Assembly: GCA_050953085.1 (NCBI GenBank) | Contig: JBMNLX010000009.1 | Location: 203,411 to 267,410 of the forward strand | Direction of reading: 5' to 3' | Length of the DNA stretch: 64,000 nt | Source of the DNA: Bacilli bacterium | GTDB lineage: Bacteria > Bacillota_I > Bacilli_A > ML615J-28 > CAG-698 | In this document: positions 26,139 to 60,148 of the stretch, piece after piece | Position numbering within the stretch: position 1 is the stretch's first letter | How the letters are laid out: each line of letters starts with the position of its first letter | Program-made: the position numbers and the translations under genes | Notes under the pieces: model-generated | What the model was told of the DNA's origin: nothing | What the model saw: the letters and a program-made list of their open reading frames with translations, nothing else | The model's database searches: none

Positions 26139-26167
26139 TTGTATATACAAGTTCATTATGATATAAT
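26139..26167 (+). promoter_or_regulatory. sigmaA-type promoter for locus A (TTGTAT-17-TGaTATAAT)
   Basis: TTGTAT 26139-26144, extended -10 TGATATAAT 26159-26167, ~25 nt before ATG 26193. Confidence 0.55.
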
Positions 26168-26192
26168 GAAGCCGGCAGAGAGAGGTATCACG

Positions 26193-28394
26193 ATGAGAAC
26201 AATAACGCTTATTATGATCGGTCTGGGCTTTTTTGGCTTGGCCGCGGGAAACAACGAAATACGGGACGAAATCATCTTTAGCGACGTCTTAAACGGAAAG
26301 GAAATCACCCGTCTGGAAAACTATTTGGTTTATTACAAATATAATTCCTCGGGAAGGACCCCGGCAAACGAGTGGGGTTACGAAATCTCGGTTAATGGCG
26401 AAAATTACGTCGTCGAGACGGGAACGAACGTTAACGTTTACCCCGGCGGCTACGCGATTTCCGGGCACGGAACGAAAAAGGAGCTTTTAACGCGGGTCCG
26501 CGTCGGCGATATCGTCGAGATAGATCACGGTTCCCTCGCGATCGCGGTCAAAAGAAACCCGGTGTTAAGCGCCGCCTTTCTTGTCGAGAAAAGCTACGCG
26601 GACGCGCAAGGATGGGCCGCGGCGGCCGCGGATAATTATATCCGGCGCGACGAGGCCGCGATTTCGAATCTTCTCAATGAATTAGCGGACGAGTATCAAA
26701 AAACGCGGGCGATTATCGAACAAGGGAATTATACCGCCGCTACGGTCGATACCCTGGAGAAGATTGCGGGTCGCTGCGAGGAAATCGCCTTTGAAATCCG
26801 ATACCGGACGGTAAATTCCGAGCCGCTTGAAATTAGGGCGCTCTGGCACCGCCCGAACGCGAGCGGAATAAGCGAGAGCAATTTGGCCGGCGTCAAAAGT
26901 TTTACCGCCAAGGTCAAGGAATTGGGCTTTAACGCGATCTACGTCGAGACTTTCTGGAACGGATACGCCAGTTATCGCTCCGATATCCTCGAGACGCACC
27001 CGCAGGTTGCCTATTATTATTACGGCGAGGAGTATGGGCACGATTATATCGCGGCGCTTATCGGCGAAGCGAAAAAGGCGGGAATCGACGTTTTTGCCTG
27101 GTGCCATACCTTTAACGCCGGGAATAACGCCTACCGGGCGAAAGCCGTTAAGGACGAGTGGCTCCTCGAGGATTACCAGGGAAACAAACTTCACCCAAAT
27201 GTCTACGGAGGAAGTTATTACCTCGACCCGTCGCACCCGGAAGCGCTTGATTTTATCGAGTCGGTCTTCGTCGAGATGACGGAGAAATACGATTTTGCCG
27301 GGATCCAATTTGATTATATCCGCTATTATGACAACGACTATCGAGCCTCGCCGGTCCGCGACAGCGGGTTCGGCGCGCACTCGGAGAATAAATTCAAGGA
27401 AGCGACCGGCCTTTCCGGGGATGTCCGGACGCTGGTTCTGAATACCGCTTACCGGGAAAAATGGAACGAGTGGAGACAGGCAAACATTACCGCCGCCGTG
27501 AAACGCTTCTCGGAAGCGATTCGCGCCGCAAGGAGCGATATCGCGATCTCGGCCGCCGTCGTCGCCAACGTCAATATCGCCCGCGACACATACATGCAGG
27601 ATTGGCCGACCTGGGTCAACCGCGGCTACATCGACCTGTTGTGCCCGATGATTTATACCGGCAGCGCCGCGGCCGTCGCCGAGGGCGCCCGGGCGATTAA
27701 AAACCGGGCGGGGAACTTAAGCCATCTGGCCGCCGGCATCGCCCCGATTTATTACGGTTACTCTAATCTCGTTGCCCTTGAGGAGACTCTTTCGGCCGGT
27801 AGGTACGGCGGCGCCTCCCATTTCGCGAGCCAAAACGTTATCGGCGACCCCGCTTTCGAGGCCGCGCTTCGGAATGGCGCGTACCGAACCGCGTCGATAT
27901 CGCCGCTTTCGCCTGCGGGAGTCGTCTTTGAAAAGGCGATGGAGGATCTGCTCGCGTATTGCGAGTATTACCGGGACGCCGCCGGGGATAATTACAGCGT
28001 CGTCAAGAATGAAATCGACGAAATCGCGGGAATGCGGCGCGAGAACCCCGCCGACTACGAGGAAATTATTAAACGGTTGAAACACCTGCGGCTTATAACC
28101 GCTTATCTCTCCGGCGACAGCCTCAGGGAGAACGTTAATCAAAAAATTACGCGTTTAATCGACGTTTTGGACGTGAAAATCTCGCGGGAATTGATCGCCA
28201 TGGGTTATTACGACCCCGAATCGGGGCCCCGTCCCGACGCCGCGTCTTTCGACTATCCTTCCCCCGGGTTGCCTCCCGTTGCCCCGGGTAACGGCGACAA
28301 GCCGAAAAAAGGTTGCTTCGCCGGCCAAGGCCTTATTGCGCTCGCCTTAATCGGATTATTATATTTTAGAAGAAGAAAGGAACACGCCTCATGA
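26193..28394 (+). CDS. membrane-anchored GHL10-family (glycoside hydrolase-like 10, YngK-like) protein with N-terminal signal/TM and C-terminal TM anchor
   Basis: GHL10 TIM-barrel region (EIRALWHRP...FNAIYVETFWNGYASY...FDYIRYY); N-term MRTITLIMIGLGFFGLAAG; C-term GQGLIALALIGLLYFRRRK. Confidence 0.75.
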   Translation: MRTITLIMIGLGFFGLAAGNNEIRDEIIFSDVLNGKEITRLENYLVYYKYNSSGRTPANEWGYEISVNGENYVVETGTNVNVYPGGYAISGHGTKKELLTRVRVGDIVEIDHGSLAIAVKRNPVLSAAFLVEKSYADAQGWAAAAADNYIRRDEAAISNLLNELADEYQKTRAIIEQGNYTAATVDTLEKIAGRCEEIAFEIRYRTVNSEPLEIRALWHRPNASGISESNLAGVKSFTAKVKELGFNAIYVETFWNGYASYRSDILETHPQVAYYYYGEEYGHDYIAALIGEAKKAGIDVFAWCHTFNAGNNAYRAKAVKDEWLLEDYQGNKLHPNVYGGSYYLDPSHPEALDFIESVFVEMTEKYDFAGIQFDYIRYYDNDYRASPVRDSGFGAHSENKFKEATGLSGDVRTLVLNTAYREKWNEWRQANITAAVKRFSEAIRAARSDIAISAAVVANVNIARDTYMQDWPTWVNRGYIDLLCPMIYTGSAAAVAEGARAIKNRAGNLSHLAAGIAPIYYGYSNLVALEETLSAGRYGGASHFASQNVIGDPAFEAALRNGAYRTASISPLSPAGVVFEKAMEDLLAYCEYYRDAAGDNYSVVKNEIDEIAGMRRENPADYEEIIKRLKHLRLITAYLSGDSLRENVNQKITRLIDVLDVKISRELIAMGYYDPESGPRPDAASFDYPSPGLPPVAPGNGDKPKKGCFAGQGLIALALIGLLYFRRRKEHAS

Positions 28395-29356
28395 GTCTAA
28401 CCGTACGCGTCGTCCCCGTTCTGGACAGCCGCGCCGTAGACGTCCGGAAGTTTTCCGATGTAAAAGTGTATCGGGGAGAGATCGAAAACGAGATATTCCC
28501 GCCGTCCCCGCCCCCCTGCTTTCCCGGCGCCTGGTACCGCAAGGCCTTTTCTTCGCGCGATTACTGGCTCGGGATCGAGGGGCTGATTGAGCTTGGCGAG
28601 TTTTTCCCCGACGAGAGCCGTTTTAATCTTGACGGCAAGGGTCGCTACATGGACAACCCCAGCGTTTATATGGGAGGCAACAGTTCCAGGGAAAGCGACG
28701 CGGGGCTCTCGCTTAATATTATGTATCCGACCGCCGACACTTCTTATGACCTTACCCCAGCTTCCCCGAAACTGGGTTACCGGCCTTTTTGGCGCTATAT
28801 ATATTACGAGGCCGAAGACATCGAAGGCAACGTCACGCGCCGGGAAGTGAATTCCTGGAACGTAACGCATCCAAAAAACTTGTCGTACTATTATTTTCCC
28901 GGCGATGTTTTGCGGATGAGCGTTTATTCGCCGCTTCCCGATTACCTGCAGTTGCGCATCGAAGTCGTAAAGCCGACGGAAATACCGAAGTACGCGAAAC
29001 TAAGGCGAGGTTACGGGCTTCCCGGTAACCGGCCCGCCGATTTCTTCAGCCCCTGTTTTTATTCCAAAGGTCACGGTTATGACAAAGCGGAGTTTAAACG
29101 GGTCAACGCCATCGACCAATACGGAAACGAAGGCTATAAAGCCCAAGAGACCAAGGCTCGGGTCACGCCCGCCGTTTGGCGCGAAGTCTACTTGTATCGA
29201 GAAATTGGGGGAGAAGTCATGAAGGTCCCCTTTCACGCCCGCCGTTACGGCTCGATGGTTTGCCCGGACGATAGGGCGATAACGGTATCCCCCCGCAACC
29301 CCGATTTGGGGGGAGAGATAATCGAGATTCACCCGGAAAAAGCAAGAAAGGAGTAA
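28391..29356 (+). CDS. uncharacterised 'X-domain' protein, paralog 1 (no signal peptide)
   Basis: Shares with ORFs 53876 and 61476 the motifs CFPGAWYRK, RDYWLG, VYMGGN, RPFWRYIYY, YYYFPGD, EFKRVNAIDQYGNEG, EVYLYRE, KVPF...CPD. Confidence 0.6.
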   Translation: MSLTVRVVPVLDSRAVDVRKFSDVKVYRGEIENEIFPPSPPPCFPGAWYRKAFSSRDYWLGIEGLIELGEFFPDESRFNLDGKGRYMDNPSVYMGGNSSRESDAGLSLNIMYPTADTSYDLTPASPKLGYRPFWRYIYYEAEDIEGNVTRREVNSWNVTHPKNLSYYYFPGDVLRMSVYSPLPDYLQLRIEVVKPTEIPKYAKLRRGYGLPGNRPADFFSPCFYSKGHGYDKAEFKRVNAIDQYGNEGYKAQETKARVTPAVWREVYLYREIGGEVMKVPFHARRYGSMVCPDDRAITVSPRNPDLGGEIIEIHPEKARKE

Positions 29357-29358
29357 TT

Positions 29359-31056
29359 ATGAAAGACACTTATTTGTTTCGAAATTATTACTCGGTCGAC
29401 AGTTATGTCGCGTATACCGGCAAGATCCCGCTTCGTCTCGACGGGAGAACGATTACTTTTAAAATGTATTCCGATTTCGCAAATCTCCTCAACGGGGAGT
29501 TTTTCACGGTTTCCTCGGACCCCGACGCCGTCCCGACTTTTATCCATTACGATGAAAACATCAAATATGACGGCTACCGGCTTGACATCAGGAAAAACGA
29601 GATTTCGATCGACGCCCGCAACACCCGCGGCGTCCGTTACGCGATCGACACGTTAAACAAACTCGTTGTCCGCAAAAACGGGAAACTTTTGCTTCCGATC
29701 GCTTTGCTTTTGGATTATCCCTCTTTTGAATTCCGCGGGATTATCGAAGGTTATTACGGCGAGCCCTGGAGTTTCCAGGAAAGGATGACGCTGGCCGATT
29801 TTATGGACAGCCTGCGCCTCAACACTTATATGTACGCCCCGAAATCCGATCCCTATCACCGGGTAAAATGGCACCAATTATATCCCGACGATTTGTTTAA
29901 GCAAATCATCGCCCTTATCAATAAACTTAAAGAAAAAGAAATAAACTTTTTCTATTGCATTTCCCCGGGATACGCCGAAAACCCCGACGAACGATTCCGC
30001 TTCCTGGGCGACGAGGATTATCAAAGGTTGTTTGTAAAGCTTGACCAACTGATTTCGGTCGGGGTTAATAAATTCGGCCTGCTAATGGACGATATCGATT
30101 ACCAGCTCAGCCCTAAAGACAAGCTCGTTTTCGACCGGCCGGGCATCGCTCACGCTCATCTGGCCAACAGGATAAACAAGTATTTGTCCGAGCGTCTCGT
30201 TAACCACACGCTCGTCTTATGCCCCACCGAATACTCGCAGATTGGCAGCACTCAGTATCGCAACGACCTGAAGGAACTCCTTGACAAAAACATCTACATT
30301 TTCTGGACCGGCGATAATGTTTGCGCCGAGGCGATTACGGAGCGGGATATAAAACAGACGCGCGCCGCTTACGACCGCGAACTTTTCATTTGGGATAATT
30401 TCCCCGTGTCCGACTTCACCCACGGCGTTCGCGAGTATATCGCGCCGATTAGAAACCGCGCTGCTAATTTGGGCGATTACGCGATCGGTTATTTGATTAA
30501 CCCAAGCAATAATTACTATATCTCGCAGGTCGCGATTACGACCATGGCTCATTACGCCTGGAACAACGCCAAATACGACCAGGAAAAATCATTCGAGATA
30601 GCTTTGGAAAAGGTCGGCGCCGATTTCCGTCGCGTCGGGCGCGATTTCATCGCGCATAATTTCCCGAGCGTGCTCTCCTACGGAAATATTGAAGAAGAAA
30701 AGACGATGGTAGAAAAGTATGACAAAGCCGCGATCAACGCCTACTATCGCAAAGTCGCCGCCAGCGCCGCCGAGTTATCGCGTCTCGATTTGCCGATAAT
30801 TAATGAGTTAAAGCCTTGGCTTGAGAGAACGATCCGCGAGGCGGAAATCGTGAAGAAAATCCTCTCGGACGAGATTAAGCCAGAGGAGTTGCGCGAATTT
30901 CTCGCCGATAATAAATTTACCGGCAGCGAGCTTTTTGATTTTCTCGTAAAAAAACGCGGCCTTCTAAACGACGAGGAATACCGGGAACTTATCGACAAGC
31001 GAAGAGGAGGCCGTTGGTACCGCGTGTTTGAGGAGAAAAGATGGCCCGTAAAATAA
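29359..31056 (+). CDS. GH84 beta-N-acetylglucosaminidase (O-GlcNAcase/NagJ-like), cytoplasmic
   Basis: GIIEGYYGEPWSFQERMTLADFMDSLRLNTYMYAPKSDPYHR, catalytic DD in GLLMDDID, WDNFP motif; no signal peptide. Confidence 0.85.
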   Translation: MKDTYLFRNYYSVDSYVAYTGKIPLRLDGRTITFKMYSDFANLLNGEFFTVSSDPDAVPTFIHYDENIKYDGYRLDIRKNEISIDARNTRGVRYAIDTLNKLVVRKNGKLLLPIALLLDYPSFEFRGIIEGYYGEPWSFQERMTLADFMDSLRLNTYMYAPKSDPYHRVKWHQLYPDDLFKQIIALINKLKEKEINFFYCISPGYAENPDERFRFLGDEDYQRLFVKLDQLISVGVNKFGLLMDDIDYQLSPKDKLVFDRPGIAHAHLANRINKYLSERLVNHTLVLCPTEYSQIGSTQYRNDLKELLDKNIYIFWTGDNVCAEAITERDIKQTRAAYDRELFIWDNFPVSDFTHGVREYIAPIRNRAANLGDYAIGYLINPSNNYYISQVAITTMAHYAWNNAKYDQEKSFEIALEKVGADFRRVGRDFIAHNFPSVLSYGNIEEEKTMVEKYDKAAINAYYRKVAASAAELSRLDLPIINELKPWLERTIREAEIVKKILSDEIKPEELREFLADNKFTGSELFDFLVKKRGLLNDEEYRELIDKRRGGRWYRVFEEKRWPVK

Positions 31057-32543
31057 TATATCTTCCCCTAGACGAGCGCCCCTGCAATTATCTCTTTCCC
31101 CGGGAGATATTTGCGGGGACGGATATCGCCGTCGCCGCGCCGCCGGCTGCGGCGATGGGGAAAAAAAAGACTCCCGGCGATTTTCAATTAATCCGGGAGT
31201 TTCTCCTTAATGAATGTAAGGACGCCTACGGCGCGGTAATCAGCGTCGACACTCTTCTTTACGGCGGCATCGTTCCATCTCGCCTTCATCATCTCGCGTT
31301 GGAAGAGTTAATCTCGCGTCTTTCTCTGCTTTCAGAGCTAAAGAAACGCAACCCGGAGCTTGCGCTTTACGCGTTCCAGTTAATTATGCGGACGCCTCAA
31401 GAAAGCATCAGCGAGGAAGAACCGGAATACTACGGGGAATGCGGCCGGGAGATATTTTTGCGCGGTTATTACCGAAACAAAGAGCGGCTCGGAATTATCA
31501 CTGACGAAGAACGGCAAGCGGCCGCGGCGGTAAAAATCAAGCCGGAGTATATTGACGATTATCTGAACCGGCGTCGGGTTAATCTTGCCATGAATCGCGC
31601 GACCCTCGAACTGCTCGCCGCGGGAGTAATCGATTTTCTCGTTATTCCCCAGGACGACGCTTCCGAATACGGGTTCCCGTCGATGGACCAGGCGGAGTTG
31701 CGCGCCGTGATCGCGGAGAAGCGTCTTGGGCCAAGCGTCTATCTTTATCCGGGCGCCGACGAGGTCGGGTGCGTTTTGCTTGCGCGGATGCTTAACAAAG
31801 TAAAAGGCGGCACACCGCGGGTATTTCTTAAATATCCTTCGCCTTCCGCGCCGATGGTAATCCCCTGTCTTGAGGACCGGCCGCTTGACGTTACCGCGAA
31901 ATACCATATCGCCTCCGCCGGCGGGGTTTCCGCGAGTTCCCTGGCCGACGCTGATATCGCGCTCCTGCTTTTAATCGGCGCCGATAAAATGATTCCCAGG
32001 CCCGGCGCCGCGCCGGGACGGGGAGTCGACGTCCTAAGCAATCTGCCGGAATGTTTCGAATTCGCGCGCCGCGCGCTTGCTGACGGCCGCTCCGTCGCCG
32101 TGGCCGATTTGATCCATTTAAACGGCGGGTCACCGGAGGTTTTATCCTATATCAAGCGCGCGGGGCTGACAATGAAGCTCGCCGCTTACGCCGGGTGGAA
32201 CACCGCGAGCAATTCGCTCGGGACGGCGATCGCCCAGGCGATCGTTTATCATTATTACGGCGACCGCCCGGAGCACCGGTTTTTCCTGGTTAAAAGATAT
32301 ATCGAGGATATCGGTTATTGCGGGGTCGTCCGGGAAAAGGTAGCGTCCGAGATTATCTCCCGCGGCCTTTCCTATTTTAACGTCGGGGAAGAAGACGGAT
32401 GGGCGGCGCGCCGGGTTGAGGAAGAATTGAATAAATTTTTTGCCGATCAATTGCCGGAGGTCTTTCGGGAATACCGTCTCGAAGACGCAAGGCTTCCCTG
32501 GAAAAGGATGTTTGAAGTTGATTTTAAGGTGAAGGAAAGATGA
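31041..32543 (+). CDS. DUF4127-family protein (copy 1)
   Basis: ~500 aa; N-term IYLPLDERPCN, conserved AYAGWNTASNSLGTA; paralogous to ORF 58705. Confidence 0.7.
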   Translation: MARKIIYLPLDERPCNYLFPREIFAGTDIAVAAPPAAAMGKKKTPGDFQLIREFLLNECKDAYGAVISVDTLLYGGIVPSRLHHLALEELISRLSLLSELKKRNPELALYAFQLIMRTPQESISEEEPEYYGECGREIFLRGYYRNKERLGIITDEERQAAAAVKIKPEYIDDYLNRRRVNLAMNRATLELLAAGVIDFLVIPQDDASEYGFPSMDQAELRAVIAEKRLGPSVYLYPGADEVGCVLLARMLNKVKGGTPRVFLKYPSPSAPMVIPCLEDRPLDVTAKYHIASAGGVSASSLADADIALLLLIGADKMIPRPGAAPGRGVDVLSNLPECFEFARRALADGRSVAVADLIHLNGGSPEVLSYIKRAGLTMKLAAYAGWNTASNSLGTAIAQAIVYHYYGDRPEHRFFLVKRYIEDIGYCGVVREKVASEIISRGLSYFNVGEEDGWAARRVEEELNKFFADQLPEVFREYRLEDARLPWKRMFEVDFKVKER

Positions 32544-34450
32544 GATTTTGCCGAAGGATTTCAGTTTTACTTATAGTTTTTATTATCGCCTGCGGCGGCG
32601 CCGTCGTCGTCGGGGCGTCCTCGCTTGCGTTTGAAAAAACGGAAGTTTTGGAAAGCGGCGAGCTATACGCTGGCGTCGATTATGAGAAGTTTTCGGCCGC
32701 GACCCGGACCGACGCGGGCGAGGTCGGCAACCAGCAGATCAGCGTCGTCAAAGCGCGAAAGTTAAGCCCCGTCAAAGTCTTCGCCTGGGCGAAAACCGGC
32801 CCGTCGTCGCTATCGGGCGGCGACATGTTGGCGATCGCTTCCGATTTTGAGAAGGAAAACCCGGGATGGACGGTTATCGCCGGGATTAACGGCGATTACT
32901 ATGATCCCGCGACCGCGACCCCCGTGAACGCGTTCGTTCGCGCGGGCGACGCGATCAAACCCGTTAATCATCAAAAATACATGTCGCTCGCGATCGGCGA
33001 CTCCAAAGAATTCGCGGTCTCGCGCGTCAACCGGAGCGAAAGCAAATACGGGCTTTCGTTTTATCAGGCCGGGACGAACGCCGTGATGAAAGAGATATTA
33101 CTCGACGGGCCTAATTTACCGCCGAGCGCCGGTAAGACATCATTTTACCACGGCAACTCGCGGGAAGTTACCGTCGCCGGGGCGAGATTGTTTTTAGCCG
33201 AGGCCGATACGCGACTGAACTACGGCGGCGTGTTTTTCCGCGGCCGGATCACGGGCGAGGTCGAAGCCGCCGCGGTCGGTAGCGATAAATTAACGATCGC
33301 GACCCGGAATCCCGAGATTGCCGCTCTTTTGGAAGAGGGTCCGGAAATCCGCGTCCAGAAAAGCCTCGCCGGCGCGAATAACGGCTATGACAATATTATC
33401 GGCGTCGGCAGCCAGCCGTTAAAAGAAGGCGAAATTCTTTCCTTTTCGGAAATCGGCGACCAGAGCGAGGCGTTCGCCTCGGCGCGGCATCCCCGCTCGG
33501 CCATCGGTTTCACCGCTGCGGGAGATGTTATTCTCGCCGCGTTTGACGGCCGGCAGGGTTCGCTTTCCGGCGTCAATCTTCGGGAAATGGCCAAGGCGCT
33601 GCGGGAACAAGGCTGCGTCGACGCCTTTAACCTCGACGGCGGCGGTTCGACGCAATTAATTATCCGCAAAAACGGCAAACTGCGATATTTAAACAGCCCG
33701 TCGGAAAAATACCGGCGCGTCGCGAACGCGGTGTTGATCGCTGCGCCGGACGTGTATATCGAAGCGGCGTACCGGGAGATAACCGCCTCCTCCCTTACGC
33801 TTGATTACCGAGTCACCCCCGCCGCCGGTGTGGAAATTAAAGCGAGGCGGCTTTTGGTTAACGGCGTTCCGGAAAGTCTCTCCGCGCCTTCCGTCTCGCT
33901 GGATTTTTCCGAACCCCGCGGGATCCATTATTTTTCTTTCGAGATTGAGTATCTAAAGGATGGTAAAAAATATACCCGGGTGATGTATAATCACCGCGTA
34001 AATATCGCCAATTTTGACGCGCCGGCGCCCGGGAAAACCAAACCGCATTCCTTTACGATCGAGTTCGCGCCGCGCCCGGAGCATAACGGGTTTGACGCGG
34101 TGATTAATTTTTCCGACCCGGACGACACGATCGTTAAACTTTACTTGGTTAATGACGGCGAAAAACAAGTGGCGCTAAAAGACTCCCGCGGCTATGTGTG
34201 CAAATATTACAATTTGTCGGGCGGGCGCATTTTTGCTTTTACCGTCGAATATCATTACGTTCTCTCGTCGCCCGCGCCGGTAAGAGAGGAATACCCCGAG
34301 GTTTTCGTTTACGAATACGTCGCGTCTCCGGCCGACGGGGAGGGCGATGAAAAAAGCGGGTGTTCCCTCGCCGGCATCCCCGCCGCTTTCGGATTGATCG
34401 TATATTATTTTGTTAGAAAACGGCGTAATTACGTCAAAATACCGGAATAG
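32540..34450 (+). CDS. phosphodiester glycosidase (NAGPA/'uncovering enzyme' domain) family protein, secreted with C-terminal TM anchor
   Basis: N-terminal signal; IAGINGDYYD and NLDGGGSTQL NAGPA-type motifs; C-term GIPAAFGLIVYYFVRKRRN. Confidence 0.8.
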   Translation: MRFCRRISVLLIVFIIACGGAVVVGASSLAFEKTEVLESGELYAGVDYEKFSAATRTDAGEVGNQQISVVKARKLSPVKVFAWAKTGPSSLSGGDMLAIASDFEKENPGWTVIAGINGDYYDPATATPVNAFVRAGDAIKPVNHQKYMSLAIGDSKEFAVSRVNRSESKYGLSFYQAGTNAVMKEILLDGPNLPPSAGKTSFYHGNSREVTVAGARLFLAEADTRLNYGGVFFRGRITGEVEAAAVGSDKLTIATRNPEIAALLEEGPEIRVQKSLAGANNGYDNIIGVGSQPLKEGEILSFSEIGDQSEAFASARHPRSAIGFTAAGDVILAAFDGRQGSLSGVNLREMAKALREQGCVDAFNLDGGGSTQLIIRKNGKLRYLNSPSEKYRRVANAVLIAAPDVYIEAAYREITASSLTLDYRVTPAAGVEIKARRLLVNGVPESLSAPSVSLDFSEPRGIHYFSFEIEYLKDGKKYTRVMYNHRVNIANFDAPAPGKTKPHSFTIEFAPRPEHNGFDAVINFSDPDDTIVKLYLVNDGEKQVALKDSRGYVCKYYNLSGGRIFAFTVEYHYVLSSPAPVREEYPEVFVYEYVASPADGEGDEKSGCSLAGIPAAFGLIVYYFVRKRRNYVKIPE

Positions 34451-34487
34451 AGTTGGCGCGAAATGTTTCGCGGCAACTTTTTTATTT
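34451..34487 (+). terminator. strong rho-independent terminator ending locus A
   Basis: 13-bp stem AGTTGGCGCGAAA/TTTCGCGGCAACT (1 mismatch) followed by TTTTTTATTT. Confidence 0.8.
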
Positions 34488-34517: not shown

Positions 34518-34546
34518 TTGACTAGACAAGTTAAGTGTTATATAAT
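34518..34546 (+). promoter_or_regulatory. near-consensus sigmaA promoter (TTGACT-17-TATAAT) for the giant lipoprotein gene
   Basis: TTGACT 34518-34523, TATAAT 34541-34546, RBS ATAGGAGGA, ATG 34576. Confidence 0.65.
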
Positions 34547-34575: not shown

Positions 34576-37500
34576 ATGGCTGCATTTAAAAAAATATTCG
34601 TGTTTGTCTGCTTGACGGTGGTTGCGATCGTCTTGAGCGGTTGCGGCAAGGACAAAGTGCCGCCCGAACTGGTGATCGAGACGCCGGAAATATCGCACGC
34701 GGCAGGCGCGGATATCGTTTTGGCGGAATATATTAAAGATTTCATTTCCGTAAGCGATAACGTGACTGCCGAAGATGAAATCAAAATCGAAATCGTCGAT
34801 TTTGGTGGGTATGACAAAGGAAAGAAAGGTGTTTACGAGATTACCATCAGGGCGACCGATAAGGAAGGCAATTATACCGATAAGAAGATGACGGTAGTCG
34901 TCACCGACGCCGACACCGTCCCGCCGGCGTTGACGAAGACGCCGACGACGATTTATCATATTGCCGGAGAAGAGGTTGACCTGACCGAGGGTCTGGAAGG
35001 CGTCGATAATGTCGACGGCGTGAACGTTAACTTTAAGGTTGTGGATCTTGGCGATTATGACAGAAACGTTCCCGGAACGTATACCGTGATGATTGTCGTT
35101 TACGACAATGCCGGCAACGAAAGCGCTCCTTTTGAGCGCGAGGTCGTCGTATCCGATAGCTACAGCCGCGCCGAGATGGTATCGTTTGAAGGCGAAGTTA
35201 TTCGTTACGAAGCGCTTTACAACCCGCAGATTCTGGCCGGGCATACCGCTACCGGTTACAACACGGCCTATGACGGTCATTATGTCAATGTTTTATCTAA
35301 AGACTATGTCGACTGGCTTGTGAATTACGCGCCGGAAAGAATCGGCTCGGGCGTCGGCTGGAGCGTAATCGCCGTTACCGACGCCGACAACAAAATCGTT
35401 TATGTCCGCCACTGGAACAGCGGCGAGGCTTACCTCGACAATGAAGGAAATTTGGTTTCGGTTCCGGCGGTCGACTGGTCGACGGGAACCAACCGTAACT
35501 GGACCGAGGAAGTGAACGGGAAAATGATCTCCCGCACCAACGCGCGCTACAGTTCCGGCGAGATGGGCATGATGATGGCCAATATCAGCCGTTGGATTCC
35601 CGATGGCGGTCATGTTTTCATGTTCATTAATTGGATGACGATCGGCCTTGACGAGAACGAGGAAGTCGTGACGAAGGCCAATACTTCCGATATGCCCCGG
35701 GCGATGGGCGCTAATTACATTATGTATAGCGACGAGGACGGGGACGACGTGATGGATTACGCTTTGGGTCGCGAGCTTAAAATCATTGACCCGCAATTAA
35801 GCAAACAATCGATACGCAAGTCTTTTGACGCGGATAAACCTTTCCCGGTTATCACCGTGTCCGGCAAACGGACCGTAACCGACACCGGCGTTTGGAAAAC
35901 GAATTATATCGAAACCGTTTATTTGAACGAACACGACAGCGAAAACCCGTATGACCCGCTTGCCGGCGTTACGGCAAACGACGGGAAAGGCGGCGATATT
36001 ACCGACGAGATTACTTATAGGGTATATCGTTACGCAACGACCGAACAAGTTTACGGGTACATGACCTCGCTATCGATAAACGACCCCCGCTGGGCCGAAT
36101 ATTACGATGAGGTCTGGACGCTGGAAGAAAACGAAGTTCAGTTGGATAACATCCTCGTCCCGGGTAACGACGGTCATTATTTCGTGATCGAATACACGGT
36201 AACCGCGAACGGGCATACCGACACGCTTTACCGGCTGATTCAAATCAAAGCCGACACGCCCGATTATATCGAGCTTTACGGCGAGTCGGATTCCGTTTAC
36301 GCAAACGTCATGTCGATCCAGCAACGCCTGGAAATGAATCCCGATTTGGACGAGTTTGGGGCGATGGACAATACGGACAAAGGCATACTTTACAACTATG
36401 AAGGCTTTAAATCATTATCCGCATATCCGAATCTTCCCAAAGGCGTCGTCGTCGTTTTGGATGAATACTACCGGGTATTAACGATAAGAGTCCTGGCCAA
36501 TACGGCTTTTGAGATTACGCCCGACGGAAAAGCCGAAATCAACGATCTGGATTGGGTTGACGACGGCCTTCTCGCGGGAATTGACGATATGCTCCCCGAA
36601 GGCGGTTATGTCGTTATATATCCCGAAGGAAAAGACGGAACCGTACTTGCGAAAGCGCTGCGAGCTTTTGTTGATTTTGATTATCAGGAAGGCGATATCA
36701 CCGCCGATATTAAAAACGGCGCCGTCTCCGTGTCTCTTGTGATCAAGGAAGTTCAGGAAGTTTCGACCCTGCTCGTTAACGGCGAGGCGCCGCTCATCGA
36801 AATCAGCGGAAACGAAGTTACGATTAAGGTCGTTGAAAACAGCAAGGAAGCTTTGATATTCTACCCGGCGGGAGGCGGGGCCGGATTCCGGCTGGATACC
36901 GGCAAGGCCTACTATTTCACGAAAGAAATGTATGCCGTTCTCTCGCAAAGCCAGGAAGTTGTCTCCTCGTTTACCACATCAAGTCCGAACAAGGGCGTTC
37001 CCTGGTTCCGCGACGGATCGATCGTCGTGCTTGACGCCGACGGCAAATTCGTGCTCGCTCGCGTGATGACGACCGCGGCCGCGGCGGAAATAAAAGCTGA
37101 CGGCACGGTTATTTACGGGAACGCTGCTGTTGTCGCGACGACCGAGGCGGATAAAGCGGCCGCGGGAGAGGCGAACTTGTCGTTTGACTTGGTTATCCCG
37201 AACGCCGCCAATACCGTCCCGCACGGACCGTTGGCCGACATTCTTGACATCGTGCCCGACGGCGGCTCGTTTATCATCTTCCCCGGCACTGCCAATACAG
37301 CCGTCCGCAATTACAGCGTCCGGTTGCTCTGGAACGCCGATTACCCGGGCAGCGGCATAATCGTTGACGCCACGGCGGAAGAACCGCCGGCCGGCTCGCC
37401 CGACCCCGCGACCAACGGCTTTGATTTCGATAACTATACCGCCGATTATTTCGAGAATCTCTTAATCGAGGTTGAATTCGTGGCGACCGTAGCCGACAAA

Positions 37501-39603
37501 CCGGCAAAACTCCCGCGTCCGAAAGTTACCCTTGACGGCAACGCGATCAGCTGGGCCGCCGTGGAAGGCGCAGCGAGCTACGACCTTTATGTCGACGGCG
37601 TTCTCGCGTTGGCATCCGCCGGAACGTTTAACGAAGAAACTAACGCATACGAGTTTGATCTTGTCGGGCTTGATTTGCAGGCCTCGACTTATAAAATCCA
37701 GGTCCGGGCGATAACCGCGGACGCGAAAGCGAGCTCGACGTCGGTATTGAGCGACGCGGTAATGTATGAGCTTAGGCGCGCGGATTCCCCCGACCCGGAA
37801 ACCTTTGTTTTGGATGATAATATCTTATCGTGGGGCGAAGTAGAGGGCGCGACGAAATATCTCGTTTCTATTAATGACGGCGACTATTTTGAAGTCGAGA
37901 CCAACCAGGTGACGATCCCCGACGACGCTTTGACGGCCGGAACGATCGTTAAGGTTATCGCCGTCGGCGAGGAAGGAGTTTTCAACTCGCTGCCGACGGA
38001 ATATGAGCTTGACATCGAGGTTATCCCCAAGGAAATAACGCTTGGCTCTTATGTGTTGCCGGTCGTCGAGTTTACCGCGAGCGCGTGGCTGCGTCACGCC
38101 GACCCGGAAAAAGGCAACGATCCCGGCGCGCAATGGATTCAAGGAATCGTCGTCGTTAACGGCGTCCATGAATTCGCCAATCTAGACGATAACGTCCGGC
38201 TCTTCAGCGGCGGTTACGCCGCGGTGCTTGACGCGGACTTCAAAGTAAAATATATCGTCGACCGTTGGGCGCACGAATGGAACGCCGAGGACGGCTGGAC
38301 GACCAACTCCGGCGGCTGGGATTGGGCTCTCCATTTTTACGCCTCTTACTTCAAGCCGTATCTTGAAGAAGGCGACGTCATCATCTTCGCCTCGCAATAC
38401 GGTACGGGCTTGCCGGAAGGCACCTACCGCAACTACTTCGGAAACGCCTTAATCTATGACCTGGAGACGCTAACGACCGATCACCGAAACATTAACATTG
38501 AGGAAGCGATTGACCCGAGCGCGGTCAAAATCGAAATTAAAGAAGTCGTTGCCACAAAAACGATCGCTCTCGGCGGAAATCACCTGCCGATCGTCGAGTT
38601 CACGCTTGAAAAGTGGCTGAATTACGCCGATCCCGACGGCGGTAATGACGTCGGCGCGGCCAATATCGCGGGCATCGTTTTAGTCACCGGCGTCATCGGT
38701 ATTGCTGATCTTGAAGATAATCATAGACTTTTCAGCGGCGGATACGCCGCGGTGCTTGACGCGGATCTTAAAGTAAAATATATCGTCGACCGCTGGGCGC
38801 ACGAATGGAACGCCGAGGACGGCTGGACGACCAACTCCGGCGGCTGGGATTGGGCTCTCCATTTTTACGCCTCTTACTTCAAGCCGTATCTTGAAGAAGG
38901 CGACGTCATCATCTTCGCCTCGCAATACGGCAAAGGTCTGCCGGCCGGCACCTACCGCAACTACTTCGGCAACGCCCTCATTAAAAACTTGGGAACGGTG
39001 ACAACCGATCACCGCGGCGTCGATCTCGAGGAAGCTATCGACCCGAGCGCCGCGAATATCGTCATCCGCGAACAAAAGAAAGTTCTCAACGTCGGAACCT
39101 CGCTCGTGAACGTTAAGGAAATGGAACTTGACGAGTGGCTGAATTACGCCGATCCCACGGGCGGTAATGACGTCGGCGCGCAATGGATACACGGGCTAGT
39201 CCTCGTCCACGGCGCCGCAGGAATTAAGGAACTTGATGACGACGCGGTCGTTTTCAGCGGCGGTTATGTGGCCGTAGTTGATTCCGAATTCAAAGTCAAG
39301 TACTTCGTAGACCGCTGGGCGCACGAATGGAACGCCGAAGACGGTTGGACGGTCAATGACGGCGGCTGGGGCTGGGCGCTTAATTTGAAAGCGTCGTACT
39401 TTAAACCGTATCTTGAGGATGGCGACATGCTTATCATGGCCTCGCAATACGGCGTCGGCCTTGGCGTCGGGACTTATCGCAATGTTTTAGGAAACGAGCT
39501 TATATATAATTTGGGGACTTTAACGACCGATCATCGCAACGTCGACATTGAGGAAGCGCTTGATCCTTCGGAAGTCGCGATCCAATTAATCGAACTTAAA
39601 TAA
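34576..39603 (+). CDS. 1675-aa cell-surface lipoprotein: lipobox LSGC, DUF5011-type Ig-like domains, Fn3-like domains, and >=6 copies of an unassigned ~176-aa module
   Basis: Signal + LSGC lipobox; Ig-like VSDNVTAEDEI...YEITIRATDKEGN; module core recurs as VVLDEYYRVLTIR / VVLDADGKFVLARV / AVTDADNKIVYVRHW / three C-terminal copies AVLDADFKVKYIVDRWAHEWNAEDGW. Confidence 0.8.
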   Translation: MAAFKKIFVFVCLTVVAIVLSGCGKDKVPPELVIETPEISHAAGADIVLAEYIKDFISVSDNVTAEDEIKIEIVDFGGYDKGKKGVYEITIRATDKEGNYTDKKMTVVVTDADTVPPALTKTPTTIYHIAGEEVDLTEGLEGVDNVDGVNVNFKVVDLGDYDRNVPGTYTVMIVVYDNAGNESAPFEREVVVSDSYSRAEMVSFEGEVIRYEALYNPQILAGHTATGYNTAYDGHYVNVLSKDYVDWLVNYAPERIGSGVGWSVIAVTDADNKIVYVRHWNSGEAYLDNEGNLVSVPAVDWSTGTNRNWTEEVNGKMISRTNARYSSGEMGMMMANISRWIPDGGHVFMFINWMTIGLDENEEVVTKANTSDMPRAMGANYIMYSDEDGDDVMDYALGRELKIIDPQLSKQSIRKSFDADKPFPVITVSGKRTVTDTGVWKTNYIETVYLNEHDSENPYDPLAGVTANDGKGGDITDEITYRVYRYATTEQVYGYMTSLSINDPRWAEYYDEVWTLEENEVQLDNILVPGNDGHYFVIEYTVTANGHTDTLYRLIQIKADTPDYIELYGESDSVYANVMSIQQRLEMNPDLDEFGAMDNTDKGILYNYEGFKSLSAYPNLPKGVVVVLDEYYRVLTIRVLANTAFEITPDGKAEINDLDWVDDGLLAGIDDMLPEGGYVVIYPEGKDGTVLAKALRAFVDFDYQEGDITADIKNGAVSVSLVIKEVQEVSTLLVNGEAPLIEISGNEVTIKVVENSKEALIFYPAGGGAGFRLDTGKAYYFTKEMYAVLSQSQEVVSSFTTSSPNKGVPWFRDGSIVVLDADGKFVLARVMTTAAAAEIKADGTVIYGNAAVVATTEADKAAAGEANLSFDLVIPNAANTVPHGPLADILDIVPDGGSFIIFPGTANTAVRNYSVRLLWNADYPGSGIIVDATAEEPPAGSPDPATNGFDFDNYTADYFENLLIEVEFVATVADKPAKLPRPKVTLDGNAISWAAVEGAASYDLYVDGVLALASAGTFNEETNAYEFDLVGLDLQASTYKIQVRAITADAKASSTSVLSDAVMYELRRADSPDPETFVLDDNILSWGEVEGATKYLVSINDGDYFEVETNQVTIPDDALTAGTIVKVIAVGEEGVFNSLPTEYELDIEVIPKEITLGSYVLPVVEFTASAWLRHADPEKGNDPGAQWIQGIVVVNGVHEFANLDDNVRLFSGGYAAVLDADFKVKYIVDRWAHEWNAEDGWTTNSGGWDWALHFYASYFKPYLEEGDVIIFASQYGTGLPEGTYRNYFGNALIYDLETLTTDHRNINIEEAIDPSAVKIEIKEVVATKTIALGGNHLPIVEFTLEKWLNYADPDGGNDVGAANIAGIVLVTGVIGIADLEDNHRLFSGGYAAVLDADLKVKYIVDRWAHEWNAEDGWTTNSGGWDWALHFYASYFKPYLEEGDVIIFASQYGKGLPAGTYRNYFGNALIKNLGTVTTDHRGVDLEEAIDPSAANIVIREQKKVLNVGTSLVNVKEMELDEWLNYADPTGGNDVGAQWIHGLVLVHGAAGIKELDDDAVVFSGGYVAVVDSEFKVKYFVDRWAHEWNAEDGWTVNDGGWGWALNLKASYFKPYLEDGDMLIMASQYGVGLGVGTYRNVLGNELIYNLGTLTTDHRNVDIEEALDPSEVAIQLIELK
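38030..39600 (+). repeat. three tandem intragenic ~525-bp (176-aa) module repeats; cores 38203-38402 and 38731-38930 ~98% identical at DNA level, third core 39253-39452 ~80%
   Basis: Direct comparison of the sequence: 137-nt perfectly identical stretch (TGGGCGCACGAATGGAACGCCGAGGACGGCTGGACGACCAACTCC...CGCAATACGG) in copies 1 and 2. Confidence 0.9.
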
Positions 39604-39663: not shown

Positions 39664-40353
39664 ATGAAATTCGAGAAGTTTTACAACAGCCGGGTTTTCG
39701 GGTTCTTCGACTGGCTGTATCGCATGTTTATCCTCAATATTTTGACCGTTTTGTTTATCGCGTTGGGACTGGCGGTCTTTTCCCTGATGGCGGCGCTCGT
39801 GGCGCTATTAATCGTTCTCCGCTCGGCCAAGAGCGATTTTGATTTCCCGCTCGTCAAAGGTTATGTTAAGAGTTTCTTCGCAAATTTCGTCCCCGTATTG
39901 AAACTCTCGCTTTTCTACGTTATCTTAGGCTTGCTTTTGCTTTTTAACAGTTATTTTTTCTATTTGGGATTTGTGGATAACGGGGGATTTTTGAACGAGG
40001 TACTGTATTATCTTGCCTTGTTTATCGATTTGGTGTTTATTTTGGCTTTCGTGAACGCGTGTTTTGTTTATGTGTATTTTCCAAACCTAACTTATTGGAA
40101 GGTAGTCAAGTATTCATTCGTCTTACTGCGGGCCGTCCCGCTTCAGGCGCTGTCCCTGGCCGCGTTTGTTGCCGCGGCGGTCGCGCTATTATTCGTGAAG
40201 ATTATTAACATTATTTTGATATTTATTTTCGTTGCTCTTTTTATTTATATCGCCAATCTTTTGCTTGAAAAAATTTATTTACGTTTGGCGGCCGAGGGAG
40301 TCAGGCCGCGCGACGTTTTCCTTTACCTGAGAGACAAACGGGAAAATTCTTAA
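39664..40353 (+). CDS. YesL-family (DUF624) integral membrane protein
   Basis: Hydrophobic 229-aa protein resembling YesL found in Firmicutes sugar ABC loci. Confidence 0.7.
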   Translation: MKFEKFYNSRVFGFFDWLYRMFILNILTVLFIALGLAVFSLMAALVALLIVLRSAKSDFDFPLVKGYVKSFFANFVPVLKLSLFYVILGLLLLFNSYFFYLGFVDNGGFLNEVLYYLALFIDLVFILAFVNACFVYVYFPNLTYWKVVKYSFVLLRAVPLQALSLAAFVAAAVALLFVKIINIILIFIFVALFIYIANLLLEKIYLRLAAEGVRPRDVFLYLRDKRENS

Positions 40354-40372
40354 GGTTTGTGAGGGAAGAATC

Positions 40373-43249: not shown

Positions 43250-43263
43250 GGAGGACGGAACCG

Positions 43264-44193
43264 ATGACAAGCATAACGAAAAATAAAAATAAGCCATCCT
43301 TTTGGCAGCAGGTCAAGAAAAACAAAGTATCGTATTCGATGGTCGCTCCTTTCTTTATCATCTTTTTTACGTTCACCGTCTTGCCGGTGTTGATGAGTTT
43401 CGGGCTTAGTTTTACTTCCTTTGACATGCTCCAAGCGCCGAAATTTATCGGCCTTGATAATTATATCAACTTATTTTTAAACGACGAGGTCTTCCTGATC
43501 GCTCTCAAAAACACTTTTATCCTGGCGGTCATTACCGGGCCCGTCTCTTATATCATGGCCTTTGTTTTCGCTTGGCTTATTAACGAGCTGCCGCGAAAGA
43601 TCAGGTGGCTCATGACGCTCATTTTCTACGCGCCGTCAATCAGCGGCAGCGCTTATCTCTTATGGCAATTGATATTCTCTTCCGATATGTACGGTGTTTT
43701 AAACGCGACGCTTATGGATTTGGGGATCATCAACGCTCCGATTTTATGGTTGGACACCCCGCAATACGCGTTGCCGATCCTTATTATCGTTCAGCTATGG
43801 TTAAGCCTCGGCGTTTCCTTCCTCGCGTTTATCGCGGGGCTTCAGACCGTGGATAAAACGTTATACGAGGCGGGGGCGATCGACGGGATCCGCAACCGCT
43901 GGCAGGAACTTTGGTATATTACCCTCCCGCAGATGAAACCGCAGTTGATGTTCGGGGCGGTTATGCAGATCACGAGCGCGCTCGGGATCGCCGCGGTCTC
44001 GATTAATCTGCTCGGGTTTCCTTCCGTCGAGTATTCCGGTCATACGATCGTGACCCACCTTATGGACTTCGGCTCGACGAACTCCACCCGTTTGGAGATG
44101 GGGTACGCTTCCGCGATCGCGACCGTCCTGTTTTTCATTATGCTCGGGTCCAACCTGATCGTTCAGAAAATTATCAGAAGGGTGGGAACGTAA
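43264..44193 (+). CDS. carbohydrate ABC transporter permease (CUT1, MalF/LplB-like)
   Basis: 6 TM, EAA loop AGAIDGIRNRWQELWYITLP. Confidence 0.85.
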   Translation: MTSITKNKNKPSFWQQVKKNKVSYSMVAPFFIIFFTFTVLPVLMSFGLSFTSFDMLQAPKFIGLDNYINLFLNDEVFLIALKNTFILAVITGPVSYIMAFVFAWLINELPRKIRWLMTLIFYAPSISGSAYLLWQLIFSSDMYGVLNATLMDLGIINAPILWLDTPQYALPILIIVQLWLSLGVSFLAFIAGLQTVDKTLYEAGAIDGIRNRWQELWYITLPQMKPQLMFGAVMQITSALGIAAVSINLLGFPSVEYSGHTIVTHLMDFGSTNSTRLEMGYASAIATVLFFIMLGSNLIVQKIIRRVGT

Positions 44194-45131
44194 TGGAAGA
44201 CGTCCAAAGCCGCGAGGCGATTGTCGCGGATCTAAAGCGCGAGGAATTAAAATGGCTTAAGGAGCGTAACCGCCGCCGCCGGCTCCGGCGCAAGGTAAGG
44301 CTCAGCCGCTCGTGGAAAGGCGATATATTCGTAATCATCGTTTTGATTGCTTTTGGTTTTTTCAGCGCCTATCCCTTAATTTTTACCATCGCCAACTCCT
44401 TAAAACCCTTGGACGAGATATTTAAGTTTCCGCCGCGGCTTTTGCCGAGACGGATCACGTTCGAACATTTTGTGGATCTTTTTAACTTAATCGGAAACAC
44501 GCAAATCCCGATATCGCGGTATTTGCTTAACACGGTGCTGATTACGTTGTTCGGGACCGTCGGTCATGTTTTCCTGGCTTCGCTTTGCGCATATCCCCTG
44601 GCAAAGCATAAATTCCCCGGAAAGCACTTGATCAATCAAATGATCGTTTACTCGCTGATGTTCAGCGCCGCGGTAACGATGATTCCGACATACATGATTT
44701 CGAGTTGGCTGGGGCTCATCGACTCTCAACTCGCGATCATCATCCCCGCTTTCGGGTATTCGCTCGGGATATTCCTGATGCGCCAGTTCATTAACACGAT
44801 TCCCGACGAACTTTTGGAGGCCGCCAAGGTTGACGGCGCGAACGAGTACCAAATATTCTTTAAGATTGTTATGCCGCTAGTGAAACCGGCGTGGCTCACC
44901 CTGATAATTCTTCTTTTCCAACAATTATGGGGCGCGGACGGCGGGAACTATATATTCACCGAAAACTTAAAACCCTTAAGCTACGCCTTAAGCCAAATTG
45001 TCGCCGGCGGCATCCCGCGGACGGGAACGGCGGCGGCGGTGACGGTGATAATGCTCGTTGTCCCGATTACCGTGTTTATCATTAACCAATCGCGCGTTCT
45101 TGACACTATGGCGCATTCGGGGTTGAAGTAG
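44193..45131 (+). CDS. carbohydrate ABC transporter permease (CUT1, MalG/LplC-like)
   Basis: EAA loop EAAKVDGANEYQIFFKIVMP. Confidence 0.85.
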   Translation: MEDVQSREAIVADLKREELKWLKERNRRRRLRRKVRLSRSWKGDIFVIIVLIAFGFFSAYPLIFTIANSLKPLDEIFKFPPRLLPRRITFEHFVDLFNLIGNTQIPISRYLLNTVLITLFGTVGHVFLASLCAYPLAKHKFPGKHLINQMIVYSLMFSAAVTMIPTYMISSWLGLIDSQLAIIIPAFGYSLGIFLMRQFINTIPDELLEAAKVDGANEYQIFFKIVMPLVKPAWLTLIILLFQQLWGADGGNYIFTENLKPLSYALSQIVAGGIPRTGTAAAVTVIMLVVPITVFIINQSRVLDTMAHSGLK

Positions 45132-52290: not shown

Positions 52291-52324
52291 AATATATACC
52301 GGAAAGGAGCAAAAGATAATAAAC

Positions 52325-53866: not shown

Positions 53867-53875
53867 GGACGGAAA

Positions 53876-56139: not shown

Positions 56140-56150
56140 TATTTCCCAAA

Positions 56151-58009: not shown

Positions 58010-58018
58010 GGATATGTT

Positions 58019-60147: not shown

Positions 60148-60148
60148 T

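Follow-up and report, generated by a model that had tools for sequence, protein, structure and literature searches.

A GHL10-X-GH84-DUF4127-NAGPA operon within a candidate N-acetylhexosamine glycan island of an uncultured Bacilli bacterium

Which glycan could be processed by an operon that combines two membrane-tethered surface enzymes with three proteins predicted to remain in the cytoplasm? This question is raised by a five-gene locus in a 64,000-nucleotide stretch (here, the window) of contig JBMNLX010000009.1 from a Bacilli bacterium (GenBank assembly GCA_050953085.1, positions 203,411 to 267,410). Five co-directional open reading frames (ORFs) on the + strand (26193-34450) encode a GHL10 glycosidase-like protein, a protein of an unnamed family (here X), a GH84 enzyme, a DUF4127 protein, and a NAGPA-type phosphodiester glycosidase. 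The original prediction described a self-contained operon for breakdown of a glycan containing N-acetylglucosamine (GlcNAc) phosphodiesters. Our analysis points instead to an operon that is most likely one transcription unit of an island of about 36 kb (26.1-62.4 kb) devoted to the use of N-acetylhexosamine (HexNAc) glycans.

The junctions between the five genes are tight. GHL10 and X overlap by 4 bp (ATGA), X and GH84 are separated by 2 bp, GH84 and DUF4127 overlap by 16 bp, and DUF4127 and NAGPA overlap by 4 bp. GHL10 starts at an ATG downstream of a Shine-Dalgarno site (GAGAGAGG), and independent gene callers recovered all five genes, with identical starts (GHL10 at 733 aa), from biogas-fermenter assemblies. 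The single promoter proposed earlier, TTGTAT with a 17-nt spacer, can be read in the sequence: its -10 box is perfect and carries a TG extension (TGATATAAT), while its weak -35 box fits TTGACA at only 3 of 6 positions, which accounts for its absence from the consensus-scan list. The strong terminator is likewise evident, as none of 200 shuffled sequences reached its folding energy, and the ORF coordinates together with Pfam matches to four families confirm the five overlapping or closely spaced genes. Coupled junctions, promoter, terminator, and an order that is conserved elsewhere (see below) all argue for a single operon. In another assembly of the same organism (L160, 804-3004), GHL10 is split into ORFs of 415 and 298 aa, through a frameshift, a pseudogenized variant, or misassembly. 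Upstream lies a divergent housekeeping gene (25574-26059, - strand) for a phosphopantetheine adenylyltransferase (CoaD)-like protein (MKIAVYPGSFDP...), so that the island starts abruptly at the 133-bp intergenic region.

A Kyte-Doolittle hydropathy scan agrees with the division that had been drawn between outside (GHL10, NAGPA) and inside (GH84, DUF4127, X). GHL10 has an N-terminal hydrophobic leader and a C-terminal transmembrane segment (residues 707-725), and NAGPA has a strong N-terminal segment (residues 7-25) with a lipobox-like IIAC and a C-terminal transmembrane segment (residues 607-625). The scan found no segment of transmembrane grade in X or GH84, and the sole hydropathy peak of DUF4127 (1.65) is a buried strand in its AlphaFold2 (AF2) model. 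The C-termini of GHL10 (28300-28394) and NAGPA (34350-34450) also share a tripartite tail, consisting of an acidic/Pro-rich linker, (K/R)GC, and a hydrophobic helix followed by RRK or RKR. In eight closely related loci a long PEPEPE run forms the linker and the GC never varies, and other relatives have a plain transmembrane anchor that lacks the Cys. Such a tail might direct C-terminal sorting or lipidation.

To place the operon among other genomes, we searched genomes for DUF4127 and metagenomes for X, using a profile in each case, and assigned neighboring genes through phmmer comparisons with reference proteins taken from the window and annotated loci. At least six independent complete contigs have exactly the order GHL10-X-GH84-DUF4127-NAGPA, with 47-59% identity of X or DUF4127 to the window copy, and seven incomplete contigs are consistent with it. 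Five contigs carry a rearranged form, X-GH84-NanE-GntR followed by GHL10-X-DUF4127-NAGPA-DUF4127. In a contig of 90.5 kb with an X gene 100% identical to that of the window, the same operon is followed by the giant lipoprotein gene described below. Because the order recurs in independent contigs, the earlier concern that these genes might never co-occur elsewhere fails, and their association holds as claimed. Some relatives open the operon with a ROK-like gene and a PIG-L deacetylase gene, and in others it is fused to an upstream X-GH84-NanE-GntR. The former gene encodes a 452-aa protein with a faint ROK match (E = 0.0015) that is paired with PIG-L (L001, 12520-13878; L013, 2838-4241; also L101 and L102) and is probably a divergent sugar kinase.

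The claim that the operon is self-contained did not survive this comparison. Every contig that reaches far enough continues from the operon into the giant lipoprotein, a DUF624 protein, a large solute-binding protein (SBP), and permeases of an ATP-binding cassette (ABC) importer. In the window, the operon has an operator-like palindrome in common with this downstream unit, and a paralogous DUF4127/X cluster lies 24 kb downstream (Table 1). This second module (45139-62440) is itself kept as a block in seven further loci.

Table 1. Features of the five-gene operon and of the surrounding candidate island (window coordinates).
Feature	Position	Strand	Evidence
Promoter: -35 TTGTAT (26139-26144), 17-nt spacer, TG (26159-26160), -10 TATAAT (26162-26167)	26139..26167	+	sequence reading
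Perfect 12-bp palindrome over operon -35; candidate GntR/HutC (NagR/DasR-like) operator	26139..26150	.	palindrome scan
GHL10 glycosidase-like ectoenzyme, 733 aa; N-terminal leader and C-terminal transmembrane anchor	26193..28394	+	PF02638, 6.5e-34
X, 321 aa, predicted cytoplasmic; unnamed family, beta-jelly-roll	28391..29356	+	no Pfam, NCBIfam or PDB sequence match; AF2 model
GH84 beta-N-acetylglucosaminidase, 565 aa, predicted cytoplasmic	29359..31056	+	PF07555, 5.6e-88
DUF4127, 500 aa, predicted cytoplasmic alpha/beta protein	31041..32543	+	PF13552, 1.7e-149, full length
NAGPA-type phosphodiester glycosidase ectoenzyme, 636 aa; lipobox-like leader, stalk, C-terminal transmembrane anchor	32540..34450	+	PF09992, 2.8e-32
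Intrinsic terminator of the five-gene unit; stem 34449-34480 and U-run	34449..34486	+	-17.9 kcal/mol, z = -4.7
Downstream-unit promoter TTGACT-17-TATAAT (11/12 match) with dre-like palindrome (34518-34529) on -35	34518..34546	+	consensus and palindrome scans
Giant lipoprotein, 1675 aa, LSGC lipobox	34576..39603	+	no Pfam or NCBIfam domain above threshold; synteny in L006-L019 and L087-L105
DUF624 membrane protein, 958-aa SBP, two ABC permeases	39664..45131	+	after the giant gene in L007, L013, L019 and L113
Second importer block: NHL-repeat protein, Yip1, DUF5696, two permeases, lipoprotein SBP	45139..53866	+	"type B" block, L125-L145
Ig-X: surface lipoprotein, LQGC lipobox, aBig_2 domains, C-terminal X domain (47% identical to X)	53876..55438	+	sequence comparison
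NanE, N-acetylmannosamine-6-P 2-epimerase	55435..56139	+	PF04131, 2e-59; NF002231, 279 bits, above cut-off
GntR/HutC-type regulator (GntR and UTRA domains)	56208..56924	+	Pfam
GxDLY/SGNH esterase, 229-aa protein, DUF4127' (30% identity), PF12831 FAD oxidoreductase, X' (42% identity)	56921..62324	+	Pfam and alignment
Terminator of the second DUF4127/X module	62417-62440	.	end of the module

The palindrome over the -35 box of the operon, TTGTATATACAA, and that on the -35 box of the downstream unit, TTGACTAGACAA, belong to a pattern with four matches in the window, compared with 0.83 expected and a count of four in none of 100 shuffles; two further hits, at 10801 and 29893, carry one mismatch each. 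Across eight loci, palindromes are kept at the same gene boundaries: TTGTATATACAA precedes GHL10 in three of them, TTGACTAGACAA precedes the giant gene in six, and TTGTCTAGACAT precedes the kinase and PIG-L genes where these open the operon. Both window sequences resemble TGGTCTAGACCA, the dre core of NagR/DasR operators. As in the NagR (YvoA) and DasR regulons, a regulator with GntR and UTRA domains accompanies candidate palindromes over -35 boxes, although the candidate operator differs from the canonical dre core. A NagR/DasR-like GntR/HutC regulator probably represses the island through these candidate sites.

These features bear on whether the genes might remodel a surface glycan of the host itself, such as a lipoglycan or capsule, and not serve nutrient scavenging. 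Both ectoenzymes are tethered to the membrane of their own cell, the gene for the best-studied GHL10 enzyme, Cwp19, lies in a polymer-synthesis locus (PMC5765458), and walled Paenibacillus with related cassettes could recycle their own wall polymers. However, among the island genes none was found for a glycosyltransferase, flippase, or polymerase, and the island encodes two SBP-dependent importers and the catabolic NanE; moreover, versions in relatives carry PIG-L, NagB, and kinases, and the promoters bear candidate operators of repressor type. Remodeling of the host's own glycan would therefore surprise us.

Three of the five products can be placed in known enzyme families. GH84 reaches 295.5 bits with PF07555 (cut-off, 25) and aligns with Clostridium perfringens NagJ at 8e-59, with about 200 bits over the catalytic barrel. 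The catalytic pair is conserved (LLMDDID opposite YWDDIQ of NagJ), as are CPTEY and NFPVSD, and the protein shares the DD pair, CPTEY, NxPVxD, and an N-terminal GH20b-like domain with both NagJ and BT_4395. Unlike these two, it has no signal peptide, carbohydrate-binding module, or cohesin. Its predicted location is the cytoplasm, its translation is coupled to that of X and DUF4127, and a role as a cytoplasmic exo-beta-GlcNAcase is credible.

NAGPA scores 112.7 bits with PF09992 (threshold, 25) and has relatives in the PDB (3ohg, 5h3k, and 6pku). Its INGDYY and DGGGS motifs align with 3ohg and 6pku, NLDGGGSTQL falls on the same motif in all three structures, and RRVANAV falls on the R/K-V-x-N of 3ohg and 5h3k and may hold the counterpart of the Arg that stabilises the leaving phosphate (R316 in the human enzyme). 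The operon protein has a PF09992 domain with both motifs in common with the bacterial DUF2233 structures 3ohg and 5h3k and with vertebrate NAGPA, the GlcNAc-1-phosphodiester alpha-N-acetylglucosaminidase, and, like that enzyme, a catalytic head (luminal or external) on a stalk with a C-terminal membrane anchor (PMC13474241). In human NAGPA, DGGGS is an invariant loop that binds GlcNAc-1-P, and the chemistry is cleavage of the C-O bond of a GlcNAc-1-P diester (PMC13474241). The similarity to the vertebrate enzyme is of the <20% type and confined to the core; unlike that enzyme, the operon protein has a stalk that is not EGF-like and no furin propeptide, and its substrate cannot be lysosomal N-glycans. 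By analogy with vertebrate NAGPA only, a GlcNAc-phosphodiester, such as the linkage of a teichoic acid or secondary wall polymer, is a plausible substrate. The GlcNAc-type chemistry assigned to the locus by the original prediction is borne out at the level of motifs, namely the DD, CPTEY, and NFPVSD of GH84 and the DGGGS of NAGPA.

GHL10 scores 117.9 bits with PF02638 (threshold, 27.9), finds the Cwp19 structure 5oq2 at E = 7e-7, and also scores with the PgaB and GHL13 profiles. Like Cwp19 of Clostridioides difficile, it is a surface-located GHL10 protein with a triosephosphate isomerase (TIM) barrel (PMC6016235, PMC5765458). Its QFDYIRY lies opposite HFDDYFY of Cwp19, with D and Y present and the register off by one; the proposed active site of Cwp19 is Asp196/Tyr197 (PMC5765458). 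Cwp19 is the sole well-characterised GHL10 enzyme, a peptidoglycan lytic transglycosylase/muramidase (PMC6016235), and a second GHL10 activity, on starch, has been claimed (PMC9967864). Whereas Cwp19 is CWB2-anchored and acts in autolysis of a walled cell, the operon GHL10 is anchored by a transmembrane segment, sits in an apparently catabolic operon, and has about 230 additional N-terminal and 200 additional C-terminal residues. Cassettes of Paenibacillus and other Bacillota also carry a small GHL10+DUF4985 protein of 406 aa, fused once to a GNAT domain (L023, 5277-6494; L052, 7814-9976), so that GHL10 enzymes may also act on imported oligosaccharides.

The roles of DUF4127 and X had been left unassigned in the original prediction. 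DUF4127 is much broader in distribution than X, occurring in Paenibacillus, Neobacillus, Clostridia, Erysipelotrichia, Solobacterium, Catonella, and Acholeplasma-like bacteria. Among 44 DUF4127 loci flanked by 6 kb or more on each side, counting partners within 8 kb on the same strand, ABC importer genes are present in 30 and HexNAc-catabolic genes (NanE, ROK, NagB, PIG-L) in 27, followed by an RpiR regulator (21/44), an oxidoreductase (19/44), GH84 or GH20 (18/44), GHL10 (16/44), and NAGPA (8/44). A typical cassette reads RpiR/(secreted GHL10)/SBP-permease-permease/(GH84 or GH20)/DUF4127/NanE/ROK kinase/PF12831 flavoprotein, and in Paenibacillus it lacks X altogether. Acholeplasma laidlawii and Haploplasma axanthum have the order SBP, GDSL esterase, Ig-X, DUF4127, alpha/beta-hydrolases, PF12831 flavoprotein, X, NanE, with GH20, NagB, and PIG-L near their X loci. 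Occasional partners include GH28, GH31, Gfo/Idh/MocA oxidoreductases, and glucosamine (GlcN)-type N-acetyltransferases and, once, in Paenibacillus, two GH18 chitinases.

The cassettes resemble the nan clusters of Firmicutes (RpiR-type NanR, SAT-type ABC importer, NanA, the ROK kinase NanK, and NanE) in their RpiR regulator, CUT1-type importer, ROK kinase, NanE, and esterases. They differ in having no NanA or sialidase among the scanned neighbors, and DUF4127, with or without the PF12831 flavoprotein, takes that place. A search for lyases of the dihydrodipicolinate synthase/NanA type gave no match at E <= 1e-3 among the window ORFs or in 158 loci, a weak negative given the query sequence used. 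N-Acetylmannosamine (ManNAc)-6-P is thus unlikely to come from lyase-cleaved sialic acid, and cassettes of the NanE/ROK type without NanA suggest that products flow to ManNAc(-6-P) and GlcNAc(-6-P). One way to explain this is a noncanonical pathway for nonulosonic (sialic-type) acids: DUF4127, acting together with either the flavoprotein or an enzyme of the Gfo/Idh/MocA type, would stand in for NanA and yield ManNAc. The mirrored gene order, with DUF4127 at the NanA position, the lack of a NanA homologue in the 158 loci, the frequent O-acyl esterases, and the Gfo/Idh/MocA oxidoreductase of some cassettes would fit, and such oxidoreductases occur in 2,7-anhydro-Neu5Ac clusters. Against this, the partners GH84, GH20, GHL10, and NAGPA are HexNAc enzymes, the operon itself has neither NanE nor an oxidoreductase, and, as a weak point, no sialidase was detected among the Pfam-scanned neighbors, which include a minority of the unlabeled ORFs. 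On balance, we consider a nonulosonic acid pathway very improbable.

The same partners raise the prospect of a plain beta-GlcNAc polymer, either chitin or a biofilm polysaccharide like poly-N-acetylglucosamine, partly deacetylated or acylated. GH84 and GH20 would supply its exo-enzymes and the esterases could strip O-acyl groups; the PgaB and GHL13 scores of GHL10, the GlcN N-acetyltransferase-type GNATs of some cassettes, and the two chitinases beside the Paenibacillus cassette also fit. Such a polymer would leave both NAGPA and the NanE/ROK (ManNAc) link unexplained, however, and no chitinase or lytic polysaccharide monooxygenase is present among the Pfam-annotated island genes. We accordingly give it little chance.

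What, then, are DUF4127 and X? DUF4127 matches PF13552 with 499 bits over profile positions 1-488 of 489, and its second copy in the window does so with 368.8 bits. Its AF2 model (mean predicted local distance difference test [pLDDT], 95.5) is an alpha/beta fold for which Foldseek found no PDB match at E <= 1e-3, the best hits being unrelated TIM barrels and alpha/beta proteins with template-modeling scores of at most 0.28. X has no match in Pfam or NCBIfam, and a sequence and profile comparison of both proteins with all PDB chains returned a single match, to glutaredoxin, at E = 1.5. The AF2 model of X (pLDDT, 95.6) is a beta-jelly-roll that Foldseek relates to Bacillus subtilis YncM, to the eqolisin glutamic peptidases 2ifr and 1s2b, and to GH16 lichenases (E, 1e-5 to 4e-7), all with weak template-modeling scores on the query of 0.40-0.43. 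Its invariant residues include E101-x-D103, which lies on one strand, along with numerous Arg, Tyr, Gln, and Trp residues, and would fit a carbohydrate-active site. Assignment of X to the GH16 glycanases or G1 eqolisin peptidases is not supported, as it has no sequence or profile match to any PDB chain and the third Glu is absent (versus ExDxxE or a Gln/Glu dyad).

The X family is small, with 238 cluster representatives (50% clustering) among 1.84 billion proteins, and wherever a source name is given among the 120 matches listed, it is Bacilli, Izemoplasmatales, Haloplasmataceae, Acholeplasma, or Haploplasma. Three X domains are present in the window, namely X, X', and the C-terminal 300 residues of the surface lipoprotein Ig-X, and the domain therefore appears to be used on both sides of the membrane. 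A further X domain was sought in the giant lipoprotein, which contains none. Literature searches found no publications on X, PF18952, or DUF5696 and none on DUF4127/PF13552 among 8 million papers, and NCBIfam has no family name for X, DUF4127, NAGPA, DUF5696, the giant lipoprotein, or the esterase.

The fold of X and the precedent of Cwp19 invite a reading in which the operon scavenges peptidoglycan or muropeptides. GHL10 would be a muramidase or lytic transglycosylase and GH84 would play the role of NagZ on GlcNAc-(anhydro)MurNAc (MurNAc, N-acetylmuramic acid), with X stripping the stem peptide, DUF4127 processing MurNAc, and NAGPA stripping wall polymers off MurNAc-6-P. The only characterised GHL10 enzyme does act as a peptidoglycan lytic transglycosylase (PMC6016235), the X model matches glutamic peptidases as well as YncM, and genes for alanine racemase and alanine dehydrogenase adjoin one cassette (L004). 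The frequency of RpiR regulators noted above is also in keeping with it. The MurNAc regulator MurR belongs to that family. Yet no MurQ, AnmK, AmpD-type, or amidase gene is found in the annotated neighborhoods, the fold matches of X are weak with GH16 glycanases equally close, X is absent from the Paenibacillus cassettes, and MurNAc chemistry would leave the strong link to NanE (ManNAc-6-P) unexplained. For these reasons, we think muropeptide scavenging unlikely.

The scheme that we prefer is scavenging of a HexNAc glycan by the island as a whole, which in our estimate stands at an even chance. The membrane-tethered GHL10 would cut backbone glycosidic bonds of an extracellular HexNAc-rich polymer, and the NAGPA-type ectoenzyme would cut HexNAc-alpha-1-phosphodiester linkages, depolymerising or detaching it. 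Fragments would be captured by the giant lipoprotein, Ig-X, and the SBPs and imported by the ABC systems. In the cytoplasm, GH84 would take off terminal beta-GlcNAc, DUF4127 and X would carry out the remaining cleavage steps that free ManNAc and GlcNAc, and phosphorylation by a kinase, epimerisation by NanE, deacetylation, and deamination would lead to fructose-6-P and glycolysis, with the NagR-like repressor controlling the units. Gene content, motifs, topology signals, synteny, operator-like sites, and the association with NanE, ROK, PIG-L, and NagB are observed; what each enzyme does, which polymer is attacked, and how DUF4127 and X contribute are inferred.

The likeliest target would be wall debris of other bacteria, that is, teichoic acids or secondary wall polymers attached to peptidoglycan, a more specific proposal that we hold tentatively, as possible rather than probable. 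These polymers are joined to peptidoglycan via ManNAc-beta-1,4-GlcNAc-alpha-1-P-6-MurNAc, a linkage unit that would unite NAGPA, GHL10, and NanE without NanA. Wall debris is also the best candidate because variation in the accessory glycosidases would be in line with variation in polymer chains, because the esterases would match O-acyl and D-alanyl decorations, and because the organism lives in necromass-rich digesters. The host is an uncultured bacterium from a biogas reactor, and its closest relatives by sequence carry the labels Bacilli, Izemoplasmatales, and Acholeplasma; contigs with the exact X protein occur in 50 blocks of the assembly collection, and biogas-fermenter metagenomes are two of the four places shown.

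Several observations weigh against this proposal. Among the annotated genes of the island there is neither a glycerophosphodiesterase nor a phosphatase that could handle a polyol-phosphate chain, and a MurNAc etherase and an amidase are likewise absent; the annotated ORFs of the window include no teichoic-acid main-chain enzyme of the GlpQ type. The operon itself has neither NanE nor a kinase, and the PF12831 flavoprotein of the island has no place in the scheme. A literature search found a reported crystal structure of a bacterial NAGPA and no activity for any bacterial member. The occurrence of GH28, GH31, Gfo/Idh/MocA, and GH18 partners suggests that the substrate of DUF4127 may not be specific to walls. 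Judging only from the taxonomic labels that depositors gave to its relatives, the host is presumably wall-less.

A bolder version, which we regard as doubtful, is that DUF4127 and X are new enzyme families opening ManNAc-containing linkages (for example, as a beta-N-acetylmannosaminidase) and that bacterial NAGPA detaches wall polymers at GlcNAc-1-P-MurNAc. Such an enzyme might act with a flavin or NAD oxidoreductase by an oxidation-elimination route. Literature searches for a beta-N-acetylmannosaminidase and for an HC7 glycopeptidase found none, and one for Acholeplasma with ManNAc-6-P returned nothing relevant. If true, DUF4127, X, and NAGPA would let wall-less and walled Bacillota alike harvest the near-universal ManNAc-beta-1,4-GlcNAc-1-P linkage unit.

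The architecture of surface enzymes, SBP/ABC importer, cytoplasmic exo-glycosidases, and HexNAc repressor is already known from Gram-positive polysaccharide-utilisation loci, and the novelty lies in the components. DUF4127, X, the giant lipoprotein, DUF5696, and Ig-X, unlike the components of those loci, belong to no characterised family. New here are the occurrence of a bacterial NAGPA in a putative catabolic operon, the position of DUF4127 as constant core in a widespread and apparently ManNAc-yielding cassette, and an unnamed jelly-roll domain seemingly used on either side of the membrane. Proteins with a NAGPA domain are widespread among bacteria, and assigning NAGPA, DUF4127, and X would define how ManNAc enters metabolism without a sialic-acid lyase. 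It could also reveal recycling of necromass (wall polymers) in digesters, sediments, and guts, including by wall-less bacteria. Since related, though not identical, DUF4127 loci are carried by the culturable Acholeplasma laidlawii, Paenibacillus alvei, and Neobacillus niacini, the question is experimentally tractable.

Two further proteins of the second module recur elsewhere. The 229-aa protein (58019-58708) belongs to no significant family and is kept directly upstream of DUF4127 in type B blocks or of X-GH84-NanE in two of the rearranged contigs; we considered it as a NanE paralogue and rejected this, the matches not being significant (NanE, E = 0.16; DeoC aldolase, E = 0.027). More distant Ig-X proteins stand alone in contigs from human-gut and other metagenomes (L134-L157).

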